DNA of 16,525 nt from Candidatus Bathyarchaeia archaeon (GCA_050010515.1 JBEKKX010000049.1:1-16525), one strand, 5' to 3'; shown: positions 2,698-12,680, counted from the stretch's first letter. Notes: a model not told the origin generated them from the sequence alone. Numbers and translations are program-made.

Positions 2698-2948
2698 AAC
2701 CACAACTGGAATCTAACACTTCCTAAGCTAGCCATCGGCTTTTGTCTCAGGGTATTTGTGTGTGCTCAACCTACCTACCCGGTCTACTAGATGCTTCTAA
2801 TATGCCCCAAATATGATTCAACATAGATGTGCATAGAACAAAGACCGCGCACTTTGCATGCAGAACAGTGCTTTTCAACATAGAAAAGACTGTTTTTTGA
2901 TGTAGAAAAAAAGCACTAAAGAAGAAAAAACAAGAGCTAAATATACAC

Positions 2949-3154
2949 TAACTTTACTGTTTATTAGGGCACGGAGCGTTTCCATGGAGGCTTTTTCGGT
3001 AAGCATTTTGAAAATATTCTTGGCGCTTAATCCGCTGCCGAAGACGATTGCGTCAATTTTTCCAGAGGTTAAATCTTGAAAAAACTTGTCTCTCAATTCC
3101 TTGTCGACGGGCAATCCTGTCTCGTAAACGTAGACTTCTTCGATTTGAGCGCCC
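2949..3154 (-). pseudogene. hemD: Internal fragment of hemD; diverged second copy of 5862-6067
   Basis: Gap-free 206-bp alignment with 5862-6067, 13 mismatches by manual count; encodes GAQIEEVYVYETGLPVDKELRDKFFQDLTSGKIDAIVFGSG...INSKV. Confidence 0.92.
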
Positions 3155-3164
3155 GAATGGGAAA

Positions 3165-3213
3165 TCCTTTCCCGCAGGGGTTCGCAGGTTCACAACTCCT
3201 GCCCGCAGCACCA
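3165..3213 (+). repeat. tRNA-Leu 3'-half fragment, copy 1 (att-like)
   Basis: TCCTT-TCCCGCAGGGGTTC-GCAGG-TTCACAACT-CCTGC-CCGCAGC-A-CCA: anticodon-stem 3' strand, archaeal Leu-type variable arm, T-arm with expanded loop, acceptor 3' strand, discriminator A, CCA. No 5' half upstream. Confidence 0.85.
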
Positions 3214-3258
3214 AAACCTTTCTTGGCGCGTGAATCTGGGTGTGCTCTGGGTCAGCTG

Positions 3259-3338
3259 TTGTGCACAAACTGTAAACAAAAATATTTTTAAGTTCAAAAA
3301 CATATTGTTGACAAATTAGTGAAGCAATATGTCCACAA
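3259..3338 (+). promoter_or_regulatory. vapBC promoter with four TGTnnACA operator-like palindromes
   Basis: TGTGCACA 3260-3267, TGTAAACA 3271-3278, TGTTGACA 3306-3313, TGTCCACA 3330-3337, around TATA-like TTTTAAGT at 3286-3293. Confidence 0.65.
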
Positions 3339-3550
3339 CGTTTACGATTCGCATACCTCGTGAGCTTAAAGAAAAAATGGAAAAAAACGCAGCGGAATGG
3401 AGCCAAGAGGTCAGAGGTTTCATTGAAGAAAGAGTTAGGCAAATCGAGCTGATGAAAACACTCCAAGAAATAGAGTTGAGGGCAGAAAAGCGAAAAACAA
3501 AAACAGACTCAACCATACTCATCAGGGAGGACCGCGAACGCCGAGCTTAA
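3329..3550 (+). CDS. vapB: VapB-type antitoxin, ribbon-helix-helix/CopG family
   Basis: TTFTIRIPRELKEKM...WSQEVRGFIEE is an RHH pattern; the C-terminal STILIREDRER is typical of archaeal VapB; overlaps a PIN gene. Confidence 0.88.
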   Translation: MSTTFTIRIPRELKEKMEKNAAEWSQEVRGFIEERVRQIELMKTLQEIELRAEKRKTKTDSTILIREDRERRA

Positions 3551-3972
3551 TACTGGACTCTAACATACTCGTGAAACTCGTCATGGATGAACCAGGTTCC
3601 AAAGAAGCCAGAGCCTCAGTCGCCAACTTCTTGAAAAAAGGGTACACTCTCCACACGGTAGACTTAGCTTTGGCTGAAGGTCTAAACGTTATATGGAAAC
3701 ACACAAACATTCTAAAAGACTTGAAACCAGAAGAAGCAAACCCAGCGTTAGAAGACCTCACAAGAATATATGATAACCTGAATGCTATTCCAACGCGTGA
3801 ACTCACAACAGAAGCGATCCACGTCGCTTTGACTCAAAACATAACTATCTACGACTCGCTTTATATTGCCGCGGCACAAAAGATGAACGGTACACTGTAT
3901 ACTGCAGACCAAAAACTCTGCAGTGTAGCAAACGGAGTCACCAACTCAAAACTCCTAAAACCAAAAGCATAA
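3538..3972 (+). CDS. vapC: VapC PIN-domain toxin (start codon atypical, see findings)
   Basis: In-frame PSLILDSNILVK upstream of GTG 3571; LALAEGLNVIWK; ITIYDSLYIAAA; LYTADQKL, i.e. the PIN acidic tetrad. Confidence 0.88.
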   Translation, partial: TPSLILDSNILVKLVMDEPGSKEARASVANFLKKGYTLHTVDLALAEGLNVIWKHTNILKDLKPEEANPALEDLTRIYDNLNAIPTRELTTEAIHVALTQNITIYDSLYIAAAQKMNGTLYTADQKLCSVANGVTNSKLLKPKA

Positions 3973-4082
3973 AACGGCACGCAACCGCAAAATGAGTTGC
4001 ATACAATTAATCTTATGGCATACGAAATTAGCTTTCAAGTTTTGCCCTTCTGCACTCTGCCCTACCCCTGCCTGATATTTGT

Positions 4083-4127
4083 TCTCACAGGGGTTCGCAG
4101 GTTCCAGCTCCCTGCCCCGCAGCACCA
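4083..4127 (+). repeat. tRNA-Leu 3' fragment, copy 2 (att-like)
   Basis: TCTCACAGGGGTTC-GCAGG-TTCCAGCTC-CCTGC-CCCGCAGC-A-CCA: degenerate variable arm, altered T-loop, one extra C. Confidence 0.82.
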
Positions 4128-4195
4128 CTTTTGTGCTAAGTCTCAAAAAACAAGCTTAATTACTTAATTGCACAGTCTATTAATGAGGCCTAATA

Positions 4196-4405
4196 ATGAC
4201 AGAAACCGTCTCTATTCCCTTGCCTTTGCTAAAAGAGCTCTATGAACATTTTGACCGGATAGAAGAAATTCTAGCCACACTTGAAGAGCTTTCAGATAAA
4301 AAGGGATTGAAAAGAATTGAAAAAAGCCTTGAAGAATATAAGAGAAAGGAATACATCACAGTTTCTAGCCCTGAGAAAATAAGAGAAGCTCTCATGAAGG
4401 ACTAA
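4196..4405 (+). CDS. Putative antitoxin partner of a RelE/ParE toxin
   Basis: 69-aa charged helical protein 5 nt upstream of relE; ATLEELSDKKGLKRIEKSLEEY resembles the motif of 5443-5658. Confidence 0.75.
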   Translation: MTETVSIPLPLLKELYEHFDRIEEILATLEELSDKKGLKRIEKSLEEYKRKEYITVSSPEKIREALMKD

Positions 4406-4410
4406 ACAAC

Positions 4411-4665
4411 TTGCCGTATAAGCTCATCTTCATGCGCAGCTTCACCAAGCAGTTCGACAAGTTGCCCAAAACTGCAAAGGAACAAGTTCTTAAAGGACTC
4501 GAAAAAGCTGCTTCTGACCCTTATGCTGGAACAAAGCTACAAGGTAAACTTGCAGGTTTATGGAGATGGCGCATGGGTAAATACCGTGCAATCTATACGA
4601 TAGATGAGAAGGAAAGCAACTTAGTATTCGTGGATGTCGGTTTAAGGAAATCAATTTACGAATAG
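4411..4665 (+). CDS. relE: RelE/ParE family toxin
   Basis: YKLIFMRSFTKQFDKL...DPYAGTKLQGKLAGLWRWRMGKYRAIYTID...VGLRKSIY: classic RelE pattern. Confidence 0.92.
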   Translation: MPYKLIFMRSFTKQFDKLPKTAKEQVLKGLEKAASDPYAGTKLQGKLAGLWRWRMGKYRAIYTIDEKESNLVFVDVGLRKSIYE

Positions 4666-4682
4666 CGTTTTTCTGACCAAAA

Positions 4683-4716
4683 GGGTTCGCAGGTTCGAAT
4701 CCTGCCCGCAGCACCA
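4683..4716 (+). repeat. tRNA-Leu 3' fragment, copy 3 (att-like; intact T-arm)
   Basis: GGGTTC-GCAGG-TTCGAAT-CCTGC-CCGCAGC-A-CCA: canonical T-stem/loop, acceptor 3' strand and CCA, 17 nt after the relE stop. Confidence 0.9.
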
Positions 4717-4792
4717 ACTAACTGTCTAGTTATTCATAAATTACAAAAGTCTTTTTAGCGCTTACATTATTATGGATTAAAGTAGAGCAGGG

Positions 4793-5412
4793 ATGGAAAT
4801 GATAAACTTTGAATCAAAGCTAGCTATAGACACACAATTGAATCTTTTTGATTATCTTCAAAACAGGGCAGAGCATGTTAGATTTTTTAGCTATGGCAGT
4901 AACATGAATAAAGAAAAGTTTGCAGACGATATGTGCAATGCAGCAAATGAGCTAAAACTTACTTCTGAAGACAAAACCAAACTAGAGCTTGATCCTTATG
5001 CTATCAAAAGAACGTTATTAGATTTTAGAAGAGAACTCTCCAATGAATCCCAGCTAGGGCGAGCATTTTCAATTTACCCTTCGGAGAATGAGAAGGTAGA
5101 AGGGATATGTCATAACATTGATGTTTAGTTTTGCCCGTTTTTCTTAAGAAAGAGGGATTATTAAATAGAAATAACCCAAGCTACAAATTGATAAGAGTAC
5201 ATGTATTCGAAGAAGAAAAAGAAGTTCTAACGCTGATAGGTCTTAAGCCAAAATCGTTAAAATATTTAGAGGACAGGAAAATTGAAAGCACTTTGAAATA
5301 TGTGTCACAAAGCATTAAAGGCGCAGTAAATTTCGACGTATCTCATGAGGATATGAGTGAGGTTGAATCATATCTTATTAATGAAATGAAAAACAAAACG
5401 GCCATTAGATGA
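4793..5412 (+). pseudogene. Gamma-glutamylcyclotransferase (GGCT/AIG2)-like gene split by a 1-nt frameshift
   Basis: FFSYGSNMN and VEGICH in ORF 4793-5128; VLPVFLKKEG...Y in ORF 5131-5412 matches the LDxxEG...Y catalytic region; the two ORFs are in different frames; AT-rich. Confidence 0.7.
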
Positions 5413-5442
5413 ATCTGAAATATCTGATGTGGAGACTCAAAG

Positions 5443-5658
5443 TTGGTTGAAGGTTTAACAGATGAGGATAAGAAAAACCTCAAGGTCATAGCAGAGGAAC
5501 TGCCGAAGTTGCGCTCACTTGTTGAGGAGCTTATGGAAACTCTTGAAATTCTTAGCGATAAGAAACTGATGAAAAGTATTAAGGCAAGTGAGAAAGACAT
5601 CCAAGAGAACAAAGTCCTCGGCTATAAAGAACTCCAAGAAAAGCTAAAGATCGATTAA
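5443..5658 (+). CDS. Orphan putative antitoxin, similar to 4196-4405
   Basis: LMETLEILSDKKLMKSIKASEKDIQEN, a motif typical of antitoxins upstream of RelE-type toxins; GGAG RBS before TTG. Confidence 0.7.
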   Translation: MVEGLTDEDKKNLKVIAEELPKLRSLVEELMETLEILSDKKLMKSIKASEKDIQENKVLGYKELQEKLKID

Positions 5659-5661
5659 AGT

Positions 5662-6561
5662 TTACAGCTTATTGAATTCTGCCTCGTCCTTTTTCGAGAA
5701 AGAATTCAATTTGCGGTTTGAGCCAAACATGGAGCAACGTTCCCAGTGTCGTGCTAACGCCGTTAAGGCTTCTTCAAACAAGTAGTCCTGCGGCATCACA
5801 TCAACTTTTATGCCCATTTCCCTTAAGGCTTCGGCAGTCGTAGGTCCAATTGCAACAGTTGTAACTTTACCATTTATTAGGGCACGAAGCGTTTCCATGG
5901 AGGCTTTTTCAGTGAGCATTTTGAAAATATTCTTGGCGCTTAATCCGCTGCCGAAGACGATTGCGTCAATTTTTCCAGAGGTTAAATCTTGAAAAAACTT
6001 GTCCTTCAATTCCTTGTCCACGGGCAAGCCTGACTCGTAAACATAGACTTCTTCGACTTGGGCGCCCCTTTCCTTGAGCTTCTCAGTTAAAGTCGGTGTT
6101 GCTCCAGTAGTTCTTGGAATGCGTATAGTTTTGCCTGAAATTTCTTTGTCTTGCAAACACTCGATTAATCCCTCAGAACTGTACTTCAACGGCACTAAGC
6201 TCACATACACGTGATATTCTTCTTCCAGCGCCTGAGCAGTTCTCGGGCCAACAGCAATAACAAACGTCTTAGCCAAGCCCTCCTTCAATTGGCTGGATTG
6301 CTTTAGAGTTTCAGCAGCGCTGAAAAGGTATTTCACGCCGTTAGTGCTCATAAAAATAACATAGTCAACTTGCCCCTTTAGCAGTTCAGTGACAAATTTT
6401 TTTACTGGTGAAAAATCGGTTAAACCTTTGATTTCTATGGCAGGTATAAAATATGGTATTCCGCCCTTTTCCTTGATTAGTTTGCCCGCTTCTTCCGCCT
6501 GACCTGCCGGGCGTGTTATGGCAACTGTTTTGCTTTTCAGGCTAGGGGTTTTTTGAACCAT
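5662..6561 (-). CDS. hemD: Uroporphyrinogen-III synthase
   Basis: VAITRP, VIFMSTNGV, AVGPRTA, AIGPTTAEAL motifs; last gene of the hem operon; the C-terminal ~26 aa look non-native. Confidence 0.93.
   Translation of the reverse strand: MVQKTPSLKSKTVAITRPAGQAEEAGKLIKEKGGIPYFIPAIEIKGLTDFSPVKKFVTELLKGQVDYVIFMSTNGVKYLFSAAETLKQSSQLKEGLAKTFVIAVGPRTAQALEEEYHVYVSLVPLKYSSEGLIECLQDKEISGKTIRIPRTTGATPTLTEKLKERGAQVEEVYVYESGLPVDKELKDKFFQDLTSGKIDAIVFGSGLSAKNIFKMLTEKASMETLRALINGKVTTVAIGPTTAEALREMGIKVDVMPQDYLFEEALTALARHWERCSMFGSNRKLNSFSKKDEAEFNKL
5663..5740 (+). pseudogene. Possible N-terminal remnant of a RelE-type toxin
   Basis: YSLLNSASSFFEKEFNLRFEPNMEQR right after the antitoxin stop resembles RelE N-termini (compare YKLIFMRSFTKQFDKLPKTAKEQV at 4411); no start codon. 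Confidence 0.35.
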
Positions 6562-8214: not shown

Positions 8215-9528
8215 TTAACTCATTTTCTCCTTTGCTACCTTGCTGAGTGCCTTGTCGAAAGCGCTTATTGTATGCTTCAAATCATCTTCCAAATGAGAGG
8301 TTGATAAGAAGCAGGTTTCAAACTGTGATGGCGGGATAAACACGCCTTGCCGTAACAGCTCATGGAAGTACACAGTAAACATTTGTGTGTCAGATTGTTT
8401 GGCACAAACATAGTCTGTGACTGGTTTTGTTGTGAAGAATATTTGGTACATTGAAGCGATATTGTAGATTTGCGCTTGCACCTTATGAGCTTGAGCTAAG
8501 TCAGTTAGGGCTTTCTTTAGTTCAGCGCAGTTTTTCTCAAGTTTTGGGTAAATTTCGTTTTTCTTTTTATTCAAAATATTTAGGATGGTGAAGCCTGCTG
8601 TTGCTGAGACGGGGTTGCCGCTAAAGGTTCCAGCCTGATATACTTTGCCGACTGGTGAGATGTTTTGCATGATTTCTTTTTTTCCGCCGAAGGCTGCCAG
8701 TGGGAAGCCTCCGCCAAGTACCTTGCCAAGCGTTGCCATGTCTGGTTTCACGTTGAAGTATTCTTGTGCGCCGCCTAAAGCTAAGCGAAAGCCTGTTATA
8801 ATCTCGTCAAAAATTAAGACAGCACCGTAACTGCTTGTTATTTTTCTTAAGTAACTCAAATAATCGTTCTTGGGCAAAATAAGGCCAACATTCGCCAAAA
8901 CGGGCTCAACAATCACTGCAGCGATATCGTTGCCCTCACGCTTCATTGTTGTTTCTAAAGCTTCAAAATCATTATACGGTACAACAATCGTGTTCCGAGT
9001 TGTTTCCTCTGGAATTCCAAGCGAGTTCGGTGCACTAAAAGTTGTAGCTCCTGACCCTGCCTTAACTAAAACGCTGTCATGAGACCCGTGGAAGCAGCCC
9101 TCGAACTTGATAATCTTTTTTCTTCCAGTATAGCCCCTTGCAGCTCGGATAGCATGCATGGTTGCTTCAGTGCCTGAGTTTACAAGCCGTAGCATTTCCA
9201 TGCAAGGTGACGATTTCTGAATTAACTCGGCAAACTCAACTTCTCGCTCGGTTGGTGCGCCATAAAGTGAGCCTTTGGCTAATTGATTCTTCACGGCTTC
9301 CACGATGTCTGGGTAAGCATGTCCCAGAAGCAAAGCGCCATACGCCATACAATAGTCGATGTACGTGGTATCGTCTACACTGTACATTTTTGCGCCTTGA
9401 GCACGTTCCACAAAGAATGGGTAAGGCTCAAAGGCTCGGACTGGACTGTTTACGCCTCCAGGCAGAGCTTTTTTGGCTCTTTCAAAAAGCATCTTTGATT
9501 TGGTTTCATTCAAGTTTGATTCAACCAC
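8215..9528 (-). CDS. hemL: Glutamate-1-semialdehyde 2,1-aminomutase
   Basis: PGGVNSPVRAF, NSGTEATM, FEGCFHG, FDEIITGFR, LGKVLGGG (PLP Lys), YQAGTFSGNP, PPSQFE. Confidence 0.98.
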   Translation of the reverse strand: MVESNLNETKSKMLFERAKKALPGGVNSPVRAFEPYPFFVERAQGAKMYSVDDTTYIDYCMAYGALLLGHAYPDIVEAVKNQLAKGSLYGAPTEREVEFAELIQKSSPCMEMLRLVNSGTEATMHAIRAARGYTGRKKIIKFEGCFHGSHDSVLVKAGSGATTFSAPNSLGIPEETTRNTIVVPYNDFEALETTMKREGNDIAAVIVEPVLANVGLILPKNDYLSYLRKITSSYGAVLIFDEIITGFRLALGGAQEYFNVKPDMATLGKVLGGGFPLAAFGGKKEIMQNISPVGKVYQAGTFSGNPVSATAGFTILNILNKKKNEIYPKLEKNCAELKKALTDLAQAHKVQAQIYNIASMYQIFFTTKPVTDYVCAKQSDTQMFTVYFHELLRQGVFIPPSQFETCFLSTSHLEDDLKHTISAFDKALSKVAKEKMS

Positions 9529-10491: not shown

Positions 10492-11145
10492 TTACTTTGC
10501 CTCCTTTTTTTGTAAGAGTTTCATGGCTATTTCTTGAGCCTCACAAAGCTTTCCTTCTTTTAAAACTTGTTTAATGTTATTGTTATTAAGTATCTCGTAT
10601 AACATTTTGCTTCTAACCTTCGGATCAGGTACCTGCTCTTTGAGGAACCTGCGTACATGTGCTTGCAGTTGAATTTCAAGTAAATCCTCAGGCGTTATCA
10701 TTTGCTCTATCCTTTCCCTTAGCGCCCTAGCCATGGCTGGACTTTTTCCCGAAGTGGAAACTGCAATCTTTACCTCACCAACTCGCGCGACAGCGGGCAA
10801 TATGAAATCGCTCAAGGCTGGGTTATCAACTGAGTAAACCATGCACCCCGCAGACTTTGCTGCTTTAATTAGCTCAAGGTTAAGTTTAGGCTCGTTTGTA
10901 ACTGCCAAAAGTATATCTGGCTTAGGATTCAGGCTGTTAACGAAAGCCTCTGCATCTTGAATTTCAGTCTTAACCAAAGCAACTTTTTTTGCTTCATTTA
11001 ATTTTTGGATGCCGCTTGAGAAGGCTTTGCTTATAACCCAGATTTTTGCGCCTGAATCAACAAAGCTTTGGGTTTTTCGGTAGCCCTCCGAGCCTCCGCC
11101 GACTACTATAATGGTTTTTCCGTCAAGTTTGAGGTCTATGAGCAA
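10492..11145 (-). CDS. sirC: Precorrin-2 dehydrogenase / sirohydrochlorin ferrochelatase (SirC/Met8p/CysG N-terminal family)
   Basis: VVGGG NAD-binding motif, VDNPALSDFILPA, VSTSGKSPAMARALRERIE. Confidence 0.9.
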   Translation of the reverse strand: MLIDLKLDGKTIIVVGGGSEGYRKTQSFVDSGAKIWVISKAFSSGIQKLNEAKKVALVKTEIQDAEAFVNSLNPKPDILLAVTNEPKLNLELIKAAKSAGCMVYSVDNPALSDFILPAVARVGEVKIAVSTSGKSPAMARALRERIEQMITPEDLLEIQLQAHVRRFLKEQVPDPKVRSKMLYEILNNNNIKQVLKEGKLCEAQEIAMKLLQKKEAK

Positions 11146-12680
11146 TTTTGTGTTTTGCCACCTTCGGAAGCGTTAAGCTTATAGTTGGTTAGTAAATTTT
11201 TGAATTTTTCCATAAAAGCCACATAATCAATTTGGTTTAGCTTTGGAGCGTCTGCAATTCTTGTTAGAGCATCCAAGTTTATGTATTGTTCTGCTGCTTC
11301 GATGGCTTGGGCTCCGAACTCTTCATATTTTATCTCGATCTCTGGTATCATGCCTCTTCCTTCCACGTCCATTCGCGGGACAATGCCTAGCAGTTCTACG
11401 CCGATGTTTTCGAAGGCGCGTTTCATGGTCAGCTTGATTTCGTCGGTTAGGTAGCTTATGAGCGCTTTGTTTAGGATTACGCCGGTTATTTTTACTCCAA
11501 GGCTTCTGAGAATATTCACGTAATTAAGCGTGTTAATCAATGCGCCTTCTATGCCTTCTTTATCGCAGCCGACCACAACAATGGTGGATGCGCCTAAAGC
11601 CGCTGCAACTTCAGCTGTTGACGTAGGCCTCACAGCTTTATCAATTAATAATCCAGTGAAAGCGCCCATGGCTCCTTCAACGAGGAGAAAATCGTGATTT
11701 TGGCTGGCTTCCCCCACTGCTTCAGCTAAAGGTTTCCAGCCGCTTTCCCCAATTTTAATCGACGAATAATCCTTTATCGGCTCTTTAATCAAGTAAAGTG
11801 CAGGCACAGAATCTCGTATATCTCCGCCAACTTTAAGGACTCCAACTTTGAAGCCTCTCTTTTTTAATGCGCCAGCGATGCCCGTTACGATGAAAGTTTT
11901 TCCTGAACCGCTTTCCGTCGCCGTTACCAACAGTAAACGTGGCGTTTTTTGGTTGACTGTGTCTTGCTGGTAGATGTTGGTTGAGATTCCAATTTCGCAT
12001 TTGATTCGCTCCAAAAGTTTAGCATTTGCACTTCGAACTGCTTCGAGCTCGACTTCGTTGATGTTTAATGATTTAGTGATGCTTTGGATGATAGTTGGAT
12101 TCTGGTCCAGTAGTGCATGTATGAAAACACCTACAACATTGCCTTCTTTGTTGGCTACTCCTGAAACCAAATCTTGAGGGTCGTTATGATAGTTGACGCG
12201 TTTTGCGTGTGAAACAAGAATTGTTTTTGAGTCTTTGTGAAGTATGATTTTGCCGTATGTGTGGCAGTGAAAGCCTGAAACTTCTTTGCCAACTTCGTCT
12301 GTGATGAAACTTTTATCAGTTATAGTTGCGCTCACTCGGTCAGTGCAGATTAATGGCTTAAACTCTGCATCTAACAGTCCTAATCCTTCTTTAGTTATGG
12401 GGACTGTTGATAGGCGTCCTACGTCGGTTTCTTTTGCAAGTATTTGGAAGCCTGAGCAGATTCCAAGCACGAATTTGCCGCTGTCAGCCATTTTCATTAT
12501 TTCCCTTGCTACTTTCTTGTTAATGCTTTGTGATTCAACTAGGCTTCCGCCTGGGATAATTATCATGTCCAAAATTTCAGAAGCTGGCTTGCCATCTATA
12601 AGCGCATCAGAGCAAACTAGGTCGGTTGGCAAGTTTCCGAAGTCTTCGAAGCATGGAAGCGCCCCTGGAACGTAAACCAA
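11136..12680 (-). CDS. CobB/CobQ-related amidase/ligase with N-terminal class I glutamine amidotransferase and C-terminal P-loop (CbiA/BioD-like) domain
   Basis: IIIPGGS, GICSGFQIL (nucleophile Cys), GLGLLD, GFHCH in the N-half; TATESGSGKT Walker A, LVEGAMG, GVILNK in the C-half. The true start is probably a few codons upstream (RHKIGLVY is in frame). Confidence 0.8.
   Translation of the reverse strand: MVYVPGALPCFEDFGNLPTDLVCSDALIDGKPASEILDMIIIPGGSLVESQSINKKVAREIMKMADSGKFVLGICSGFQILAKETDVGRLSTVPITKEGLGLLDAEFKPLICTDRVSATITDKSFITDEVGKEVSGFHCHTYGKIILHKDSKTILVSHAKRVNYHNDPQDLVSGVANKEGNVVGVFIHALLDQNPTIIQSITKSLNINEVELEAVRSANAKLLERIKCEIGISTNIYQQDTVNQKTPRLLLVTATESGSGKTFIVTGIAGALKKRGFKVGVLKVGGDIRDSVPALYLIKEPIKDYSSIKIGESGWKPLAEAVGEASQNHDFLLVEGAMGAFTGLLIDKAVRPTSTAEVAAALGASTIVVVGCDKEGIEGALINTLNYVNILRSLGVKITGVILNKALISYLTDEIKLTMKRAFENIGVELLGIVPRMDVEGRGMIPEIEIKYEEFGAQAIEAAEQYINLDALTRIADAPKLNQIDYVAFMEKFKNLLTNYKLNASEGGKTQNCS

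Follow-up and report, generated by a model that had tools for sequence, protein, structure and literature searches.

Toxin-antitoxin cassettes between copies of a tRNA-Leu(CAA) 3' end within a duplicated hemD locus of a Bathyarchaeia archaeon

The window analysed here is a complete contig of 16.5 kb (C49, 16,525 nucleotides) from a peat-dwelling Bathyarchaeia archaeon, whose archaeal genome assembly comprises 2.38 Mb on 66 contigs and is 98.5% complete. Searches for AmoA and McrA that were meant to place the organism were both negative, and the AmoA control also matched nowhere. It carries three fragments of a transfer RNA (tRNA) gene, tRNA-Leu(CAA), that delimit a row of small toxin-antitoxin (TA) cassettes, and this row lies between a partial and an intact copy of hemD, the gene for uroporphyrinogen-III synthase. 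We consider it likely that this is an ectopically placed accretion array, now partly decayed, whose TA cassettes lack integrases and which was built by recombination at attachment (att) sites derived from tRNA-Leu(CAA). Bathyarchaeia are abundant uncultured archaea of sediment and peat whose mobile elements have barely been described, and our literature search found no paper on tRNA-att cassette arrays in this group.

Fragments of tRNA-Leu(CAA), their cassettes and a duplicated hemD

An intact, intron-bearing tRNA gene that begins GCTGCGG is located elsewhere in the same genome (G000), at C36:6684-6804, by ARAGORN when introns are allowed. In an Rfam covariance alignment, this source gene has C-A-A at positions 34-36, an insert of 33-36 nucleotides (nt) after position 37 that corresponds to a 37/38 intron, and A as its discriminator base, and the CUUGAG of the intron is complementary to the loop sequence CUCAAG. 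ARAGORN labels the gene Ser(CGA), which we rejected on the strength of the alignment and the discriminator, and it names several orthologues Leu(CAA). As a result of the alignment, the intron pairing, the discriminator and the orthologue labels, we conclude that the gene is tRNA-Leu(CAA).

Judged by sequence comparison, the att-type repeats of the window (Table 1) are duplicates of the 3' end of this tRNA. A gapped pattern of the repeat matches three places on the same strand of the window (3179-3213, 4092-4127 and 4684-4716) and one on C36, while its reversed control matches none, and the exact 34-mer at 4683-4716 has no match in 200 shuffles. A low-stringency search of the window returned no additional copy. 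Copy 1 aligns over window positions 3142-3213 with tRNA positions ~52-121 (92% identity over 70 nt), and the T-loop variant of copy 2, CCAGCTCC, recurs in three other genomes of the genus (G067, G042 and G016). The preliminary description of this DNA had reported three co-oriented tRNA-Leu 3' ends acting as att duplicates, in units too small to encode a recombinase and in a stretch with neither an integrase nor an intact tRNA, and had suggested a search for the intact gene beginning GCTGCGG. Our analysis bears this out: ARAGORN finds no tRNA in the window, the tyrosine recombinase profiles PF00589 and PF16795 match nothing on the contig, and the anticodon can now be given as CAA. The start assigned to copy 1 needs correction, because this copy reaches farther in the 5' direction, into the tRNA intron. 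The array does not begin at an intact tRNA serving as the left att site (attL), an arrangement that is present at native tRNA loci of relatives.

Some archaea have split tRNA genes, and the identity of copy 3 with the tRNA end could be read to mean that the copies are working 3' halves of a split tRNA, or other functional RNAs, rather than recombination scars. We regard this as very improbable, given that an intact tRNA-Leu(CAA) gene is present, that the T-loops of copies 1 and 2 are damaged, that no Rfam family matches in the window, and that fragment length differs among loci from 28 to ~90 nt.

Pfam and NCBIfam profiles assign the cargo of the first two cassettes. A VapB-family gene directly upstream of a PIN-domain gene identifies cassette 1 as a VapBC type II TA module. 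The PIN frame is open from 3547, and its first canonical start, at 3571, lies past the conserved Asp codon; because the orthologous cassette of G067 likewise has no canonical start before this Asp, there is probably no lesion. Cassette 2 has the RelBE/ParDE arrangement of a small upstream open reading frame (ORF) followed by a RelE/ParE-fold gene, and an 88%-identical homologue of its candidate antitoxin lies behind the tRNA of G003, where the toxin gene is deleted. The third unit is a composite of two parts, here called 3a and 3b. Cassette 3a is rich in A and T (33% GC compared to 42.6% for the genome), neither of its ORFs has a Pfam or NCBIfam match, and a search of its DNA against the 119 remaining genomes of the genus gave no match. 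Its gene is possibly GGCT/AIG2-like, the sole family hint being a weak Atlas lead (0.91, 152 shared features), and it carries an N-terminal YGSNM-type motif that we take to be a resemblance only. Cassette 3b retains an antitoxin gene whose partner in G042 and G129 is a RelE/ParE toxin of 85-90 amino acids; here the toxin has been deleted across a 12-nt overlap, leaving a scar at ~5620-5631. An att copy lies on either side of cassettes 1 and 2 and only to the left of cassette 3, and none of the cassettes carries recombination genes, as is characteristic of integrase-less att-flanked elements. Of the cargo assignments made previously, vapBC and the antitoxin-relE pair stand, the GGCT-like gene is at most a weak lead, and the relE remnant of the third unit is replaced by a deletion of the toxin gene.

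The preliminary description overlooked three features: a duplication of hemD, a junction at which hemD resembles the tRNA intron, and a miniature inverted-repeat transposable element (MITE) at the left edge of the array. Intact hemD heads a tetrapyrrole operon that includes cobA, hemC, hemL, hemB, a sirC-like gene and others. The partial copy, hemD', forms a direct repeat with it (2949-3154 versus 5862-6067, 94% identity), which reading by eye against other hemD sequences extends to 2938, for a duplicate of 206-217 nt; its HEM4 match is weak and covers model positions 152-191 only. The array is ectopic, lying inside a hemD duplication and away from the tRNA gene. The junction between hemD' and copy 1 coincides with the 17-nt stretch over which hemD and the tRNA are most alike, at 15 of 17 positions, a score reached in 2 of 200 shuffles.

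Two further features mark the edges of this duplication. On the right, hemD lacks its ancestral stop codon (window 5662-5737, minus strand), its last ~25 codons being a cassette-derived tail with a hairpin at 5664-5717 formed by a 23-nt inverted repeat (5664-5686 and 5695-5717). On the left, hemD' is cut short by a short, non-coding repeat with the features of a MITE: an eight-copy alignment defines a family of ~220-235 bp whose full copies end in terminal inverted repeats of ~27 bp, 31 further matches occur in the same genome and others in relatives, and contig depth over the repeat is ~30 times that of its flanks in four peat sequencing runs.

Arrays of repeats invite assembly errors, and the preliminary description had named misassembly as an outcome that would undo its proposal. 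The locus sequence is present in 20 of the 22 runs listed (peat or wetland, 17 studies) by the criterion that at least half of the sampled words are found. Contigs from four public runs (four studies, 2017-2025) cover 3061-4712 and 4688-5944 with 0 differences in X1 and X2. These contigs end at repeats (2792, 3031-3090, 4688-4712 and 5944-5974), and consequently no single short-read contig spans the whole array, as would also be the case if repeats had led to the joining of contigs from different loci or strains. Such an artefact is scarcely credible here: in X1 and X2, there is for each junction a contig that bridges it without a difference, the layout is the same in the runs of all four studies, and the hemD'::att junction recurs in the independently assembled genomes G042 and G129.

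Table 1. Coordinates of the features discussed (window positions unless a contig is named; G, genome; C, contig).
Feature	Position	Strand	Description
MITE-like repeat	2729-2937	.	Truncates the left hemD fragment; own left end degenerate
hemD'	2938-3154	-	Duplicate of an internal hemD segment (counterpart of 5851-6067); non-functional
Recombination junction	3141-3157	+	Stretch common to hemD 6051-6067 and the tRNA intron (tRNA positions 48-64)
att copy 1	3141-3213	+	tRNA-Leu(CAA) from mid-intron to CCA; T-loop mutated; fused to hemD'
Cassette 1	3214-4085	+	vapB and vapC/PIN
vapB	3329-3550	+	NF050799, 62.5 bits (cut-off 60)
vapC/PIN gene	3571-3972	+	PF01850, 34.8 bits (cut-off 23.6)
att copy 2	4086-4127 (start approximate)	+	Variable arm, T-arm and 3' acceptor strand; variant T-loop with one extra C
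Cassette 2	4128-4680	+	Antitoxin candidate and RelE/ParE toxin
Antitoxin candidate	4196-4405	+	69 amino acids; no Pfam or NCBIfam family
RelE/ParE toxin gene	4411-4665	+	PF05016, 35.5 bits (cut-off 23)
att copy 3	4683-4716	+	34 of 34 nt identical to the tRNA 3' end
Cassette 3a	4717-5430	+	Frameshifted gene; ORFs 4793-5128 and 5131-5412 in different frames
Cassette 3b	5431-5737	+	Antitoxin gene of a RelBE-type pair without its toxin, then a tail from a neighbouring module
Cassette 3b antitoxin gene	5443-5658	+	No family; partner of a RelE/ParE gene in relatives
Intact hemD	5662-6561	-	HEM4, 2e-53; ancestral sequence from 5738 on
Other MITE copies, same genome	C28:21100-21320, C32:24954-25174, C7:66652-66870, C4:46651-46884 and others
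Other tRNA-fragment loci, same genome	C5:10701-16309; C1:92031-92744; C7:17248-22899; C41:14389-17530; C45:6074-7632		Cargo PIN/antitoxin, Fic, AAA-ATPase, HNH
G041 element	G041:C1:134000-153999, stretch positions 1448-2489 and 8305-8395		Integrase ORF (1521-2489) at the tRNA; closing att

The platform and its cassettes in related genomes

The comparison drew on 120 genomes of the genus, including the present one, with G016, G004, G042 and G129 as references for hemD. In G042 and G129, whose flanks are ~94-96% identical to those of the window, the same hemD'::tRNA junction is found at the same locus, and what follows it is different. In G129 (contig C16), only one cassette, of the RelBE type, separates the junction from intact hemD. 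The array of G042 (contig C22) comprises five att fragments and a tandem pair of hemD'::att units, carries cargo of the MNT-HEPN, TIR-domain and Mrr-like kinds, and contains no integrase. In G016 there is no array, and all that is left is a decayed remnant of att at a distance of 18 bp from the hemD stop; G004 has another neighbour beside hemD and no att remnant. The divergence between hemD' and hemD is 6%, and the orthologous hemD genes of G042, G129 and the present genome differ by 5%, which fits a junction that predates the split of these species and a turnover of cassettes that has been complete since. The locus and its relatives represent a dated natural series of 0, 1, 3 and ~5 cassettes on one platform, from which the speed of TA and defence gene turnover can be seen. 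G129 was considered as the primordial one-cassette state and rejected, because its hemD' is fused directly to the flank and the hemD stop region is missing; it may be a reduced form. Differing cassette content among close relatives, with breakpoints at the repeats, is the outcome that the preliminary description had set as support for a cassette system.

Individual cassettes also recur at other places. The DNA directly behind the intact tRNA of G067 is 94-95% identical to the segment of the window that extends from copy 1, across vapBC, as far as the CCA of copy 2, and the similarity includes the variant T-loop of copy 2 and stops at its CCA. The core genes beside the tRNA are 86-92% identical between these two genomes. 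G067 is a more distant species than G042, G129, G104 and G058, from all four of which the vapBC cassette is absent. The RelBE cassette occupies the hemD locus in the present genome and in G129; G042, G016, G005, G007 and G011 carry it at the native tRNA locus.

Throughout the genus, the tRNA part is matched in 115 of the 120 genomes. In at least 19 genomes among the matches listed, the contig with the tRNA holds another, partial copy, which always lies downstream and in the same orientation, and the spacing between the copies in this listed set is 0.4-12.8 kb, mostly 0.4-1.2 kb, with a median of ~0.7 kb. Larger islands occupy the same tRNA in G129 (4.6 kb) and G124 (12.7 kb), and among the larger ORFs searched in these two islands (10 proteins) there was no integrase.

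The native gene itself does not have a fixed address. The order is gene A, tRNA, gene B in G002 (contig C3) and G011 (contig C1), and gene A, gene B, tRNA in G016 and on C36 of the present genome, which indicates that tRNA-Leu(CAA) has moved within the genus. In G058 (G058:C6:146000-164000, positions 5163-6377), the intact tRNA-Leu(CAA) and its usual upstream genes are joined to the hemD operon, where most relatives have another set of genes after the tRNA; from its sequence, this arrangement looks like a chromosomal rearrangement via att repeats.

Other tRNA genes of the present genome have similar surroundings. Copies of their own 3' ends lie near tRNA-Ser(GCT), tRNA-Leu(GAG), tRNA-Arg(GCG) and tRNA-Asn, and near fragments of tRNA-Leu(TAG). 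Behind tRNA-Ser(GCT), the DNA between fragments encodes a PIN protein with an antitoxin, a Fic protein and an AAA_15/21 ATPase. Behind tRNA-Arg(GCG) is a 5.5-kb element with an integrase of the Sulfolobus spindle-shaped virus (SSV) type (PF16795), the only one of these loci that retains an integrase.

A matching integrase and a model for array formation

An integrase specific for this att site exists in relatives. By crossing integrase matches with tRNA positions, we found two such loci, in G041 and G015. The G041 enzyme is encoded by an ORF of 322 amino acids (PF00589) that begins inside the 3' exon of tRNA-Leu(CAA), its ATG being at the intron-exon border. The gene belongs to a 6.8-kb element that also encodes an FRG protein, a GmrSD-like nuclease, a weak match to Rep and a second integrase-like protein, and that ends in a 28-nt att copy. 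No stop interrupts the frame across a simulated circular junction of this element, and an ATG lies 14 codons ahead of att, which places att inside the integrase gene's 5' end. The excised form would thereby gain a different 14-codon N-terminus and another upstream region, such that integration would swap the start and promoter of the enzyme and not split it. The G015 gene is in three pieces, and G014 keeps only residues 1-90. Homologues of this integrase occupy 36 loci, nearly all of them in Bathyarchaeota/Bathyarchaeia; the five closest to the G041 enzyme all overlap tRNA-Leu(CAA), and more distant ones abut tRNA-Thr or tRNA-Ala.

Decay of this integrase in place bears on the main rival to our interpretation, in which every unit is what remains of a larger, integrase-bearing element once integrated at the tRNA-derived site, deletions have spared the att site and the addictive TA pair, and no mini-cassette was ever mobilised. 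The fragmentary genes of G015 and G014 are what this would produce, as are the toxin-gene deletions in the present array and in G003 and the larger integrase-less islands of G129 and G124. As a complete explanation we nevertheless find it unlikely. First, a tblastn search with the G041 integrase found no remnant beyond the 18 residues encoded by the tRNA itself in the arrays of ten genomes (the present one, G042, G129, G067, G130, G107, G084, G064, G005 and G016). Second, the vapBC unit has identical, att-defined ends here and in G067, with unrelated neighbours on both sides and an identity above that of the flanks. Third, the spacings cluster around the size of a TA module and are not spread over all sizes. 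The preliminary description had offered erosion of larger islands as its alternative, and we agree that erosion occurs, as the toxin deletion of cassette 3 and the decaying integrases of two relatives attest, without accepting it as the whole account.

We therefore return to accretion as our preferred interpretation, which would proceed in three steps. In the first, recombination between a 17-nt stretch of the tRNA intron and its best look-alike in hemD may have fused a 3' fragment of hemD to tRNA positions ~52-121. The structure of this fusion is plain in the window, and its outcome is of the Campbell type, with hemD duplicated so that one copy stays whole. The fusion is older than the divergence of the present species, G042 and G129. 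In the second step, as the comparisons show, small cassettes were gained, lost and exchanged at the att copies of this platform, with the result that three ~95%-identical species now differ entirely in cargo. The likely catalyst is a Bathyarchaeial tyrosine integrase whose gene starts in this tRNA, acting in trans from elements such as the 6.8-kb one of G041. The third step, which is visible in the sequence, is decay: hemD' has been cut short by the MITE, copies 1 and 2 carry T-loop mutations, one toxin gene has been lost by deletion, a frameshift disrupts one cargo gene, and the hemD stop has been replaced. TA modules probably predominate among the cassettes because their loss is penalised by addiction.

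Several observations weigh against this model. No integrase encoded in the present genome matches this specificity; the closest relative there of the G041 enzyme is 31% identical. Excision joints, circle junctions and loose ends are absent from the contigs of the four runs, which is weak evidence because contigs lose rare forms. There is no att copy between 3a and 3b, and inspection by eye found no conserved arm sequences beside the att copies that different cassettes share. Many of the 19 genomes with a second tRNA copy may hold one inherited RelBE cassette, so that independent events would be fewer than the count suggests. The variant T-loop is joined to differing downstream sequence in different genomes, implying several crossover positions, or else homologous recombination or gene conversion, and not one fixed cleavage site. 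Finally, the founding event at hemD could equally well have been microhomology-mediated illegitimate recombination or unequal exchange without an integrase. A free element was likewise not found among viral contigs, where the exact 28-mer of the att site has no match.

Some of these points would be expected if homologous recombination alone had been at work, with att copies and hemD fragments serving as short repeats for allelic replacement and unequal crossing-over, and with no site-specific recombinase involved since the ancient founding. The shuffled variant T-loop, the tandem hemD'::att units of G042 (as expected from unequal exchange) and the joining of the intact tRNA to the hemD operon in G058 (as expected from repeat-mediated rearrangement) are all consistent with this lesser rival. 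We consider it improbable, since the blocks of identity are only 28-70 nt long, cargo unique to one species, such as cassette 3a, needed a route of entry, and the group does possess an integrase dedicated to this very site.

Taken together, the comparisons support mobilisation of mini-cassettes in trans, with erosion also occurring. The preliminary description had suggested that an integrase stacks TA islets in trans, and relatives do contain the matching integrase, as this would require, but the genome itself and the contigs of the four runs provide neither enzyme nor joints. A broader possibility, which we advance only tentatively, is that Bathyarchaeia operate a tRNA-end cassette system. 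Minimal TA and defence cassettes with tRNA-derived att sites of 28-70 nt would then be true non-autonomous mobile units, shuttled between att loci by integrases whose genes start in the target tRNA, and platforms could be seeded through look-alike sites, even in an essential gene, and grow on their own. If so, the system would be a functional analogue of integron arrays.

Relation to known systems and neighbouring genes

The general kind of element is already known: tRNA-linked islands with partial tRNAs, att-flanked elements that lack an integrase, and att sites that archaea have in tRNA genes, intron-bearing ones among them, and at the ends of protein genes. The unusual aspects of the present locus are its detachment from the tRNA, the gene-preserving duplication of hemD at an intron look-alike, its units of TA-only size, and its lineage.

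Chromosomal integrons contain rows of small promoter-proximal cassettes, including TA pairs that may stabilise the array, and the preliminary description had called the locus integron-like. In the strict sense it is not an integron analogue. The locus has no IntI, no attI, no common promoter and no promoterless cassettes bounded by attC; tRNA fragments serve as its repeats, and the cassettes seem to have A/T-rich upstream regions of their own.

In the tycheposon islands described by Hackl et al. (bioRxiv 10.1101/2020.12.28.424599), full and partial tRNAs flank the elements, and repeated integration pushes older elements inward. The present locus shares with that description the degenerate elements and scattered partial tRNAs. 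The islands described there belong to cyanobacteria, lie beside an intact tRNA, carry nutrient-uptake and defence cargo and often have integrases, whereas this one is archaeal, with integrase-less units of TA size in a detached array within hemD. Cis-mobilizable elements (CIMEs) and site-specific accretion among the integrative and conjugative or integrative and mobilizable elements of streptococci (PMC5704250, PMC7563491) involve tandem att-flanked units without recombination or transfer genes, which the integrase of a related element could move. Those reports concern bacterial, conjugation-linked elements that were mobilised experimentally; our array is known from sequence, and its units are far smaller.

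In archaeal gene capture (She et al. 2001, cited in PMC7253208; reviewed in PMC8371274), att corresponds to the 3' portion of a tRNA gene, intron-bearing ones included, and lies inside the integrase frame, captured elements become immobile, and integrases drive chromosomal rearrangements. Integration of the G041 element is not clearly 'suicidal' in the sense of those accounts, because only ~14 N-terminal codons are swapped and the long ORF stays open. Its integrase is of the PF00589 family and not of the SSV type (PF16795), and its host is a mesophilic Bathyarchaeia archaeon of peat.

Integration into protein genes offers a parallel for the hemD event. Archaeal elements that integrate in the 3'-distal ends of such genes supply a replacement end and leave the target functional, and the thaumarchaeal att sites described have a median length of 17 bp (Krupovic et al. 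2019, PMC6563490). Salmonella genomic island 1 (SGI1) can use a secondary att site that resembles its primary one, and it forms tandem arrays (PMC2297512). Compared to the protein-gene integrations of PMC6563490, the hemD site differs in being a look-alike of a tRNA-intron segment, and its duplication of 206-333 nt is much longer than the thaumarchaeal att sites. The present case suggests that a tRNA intron can form part of a recombination site, and that a new hot spot can be founded at a look-alike site within a housekeeping gene while the gene stays unbroken. It also names a concrete integrase family and its substrates with which mobilisation of integrase-less mini-cassettes in trans can be tested.

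Two neighbouring genes of the window deserve a brief description. To the left of the array, the gene at 2259-2697 is a remnant of which only the last 75 residues are left (2470-2694); the version in G042 encodes 265 amino acids and has no Pfam family. Farther to the right, on the minus strand at 11136-12680, a protein of 514 amino acids combines an N-terminal CobB/CobQ-type glutamine amidotransferase domain with a C-terminal CbiA/AAA_26 ATPase domain, a domain order that is presumably the reverse of the usual one.

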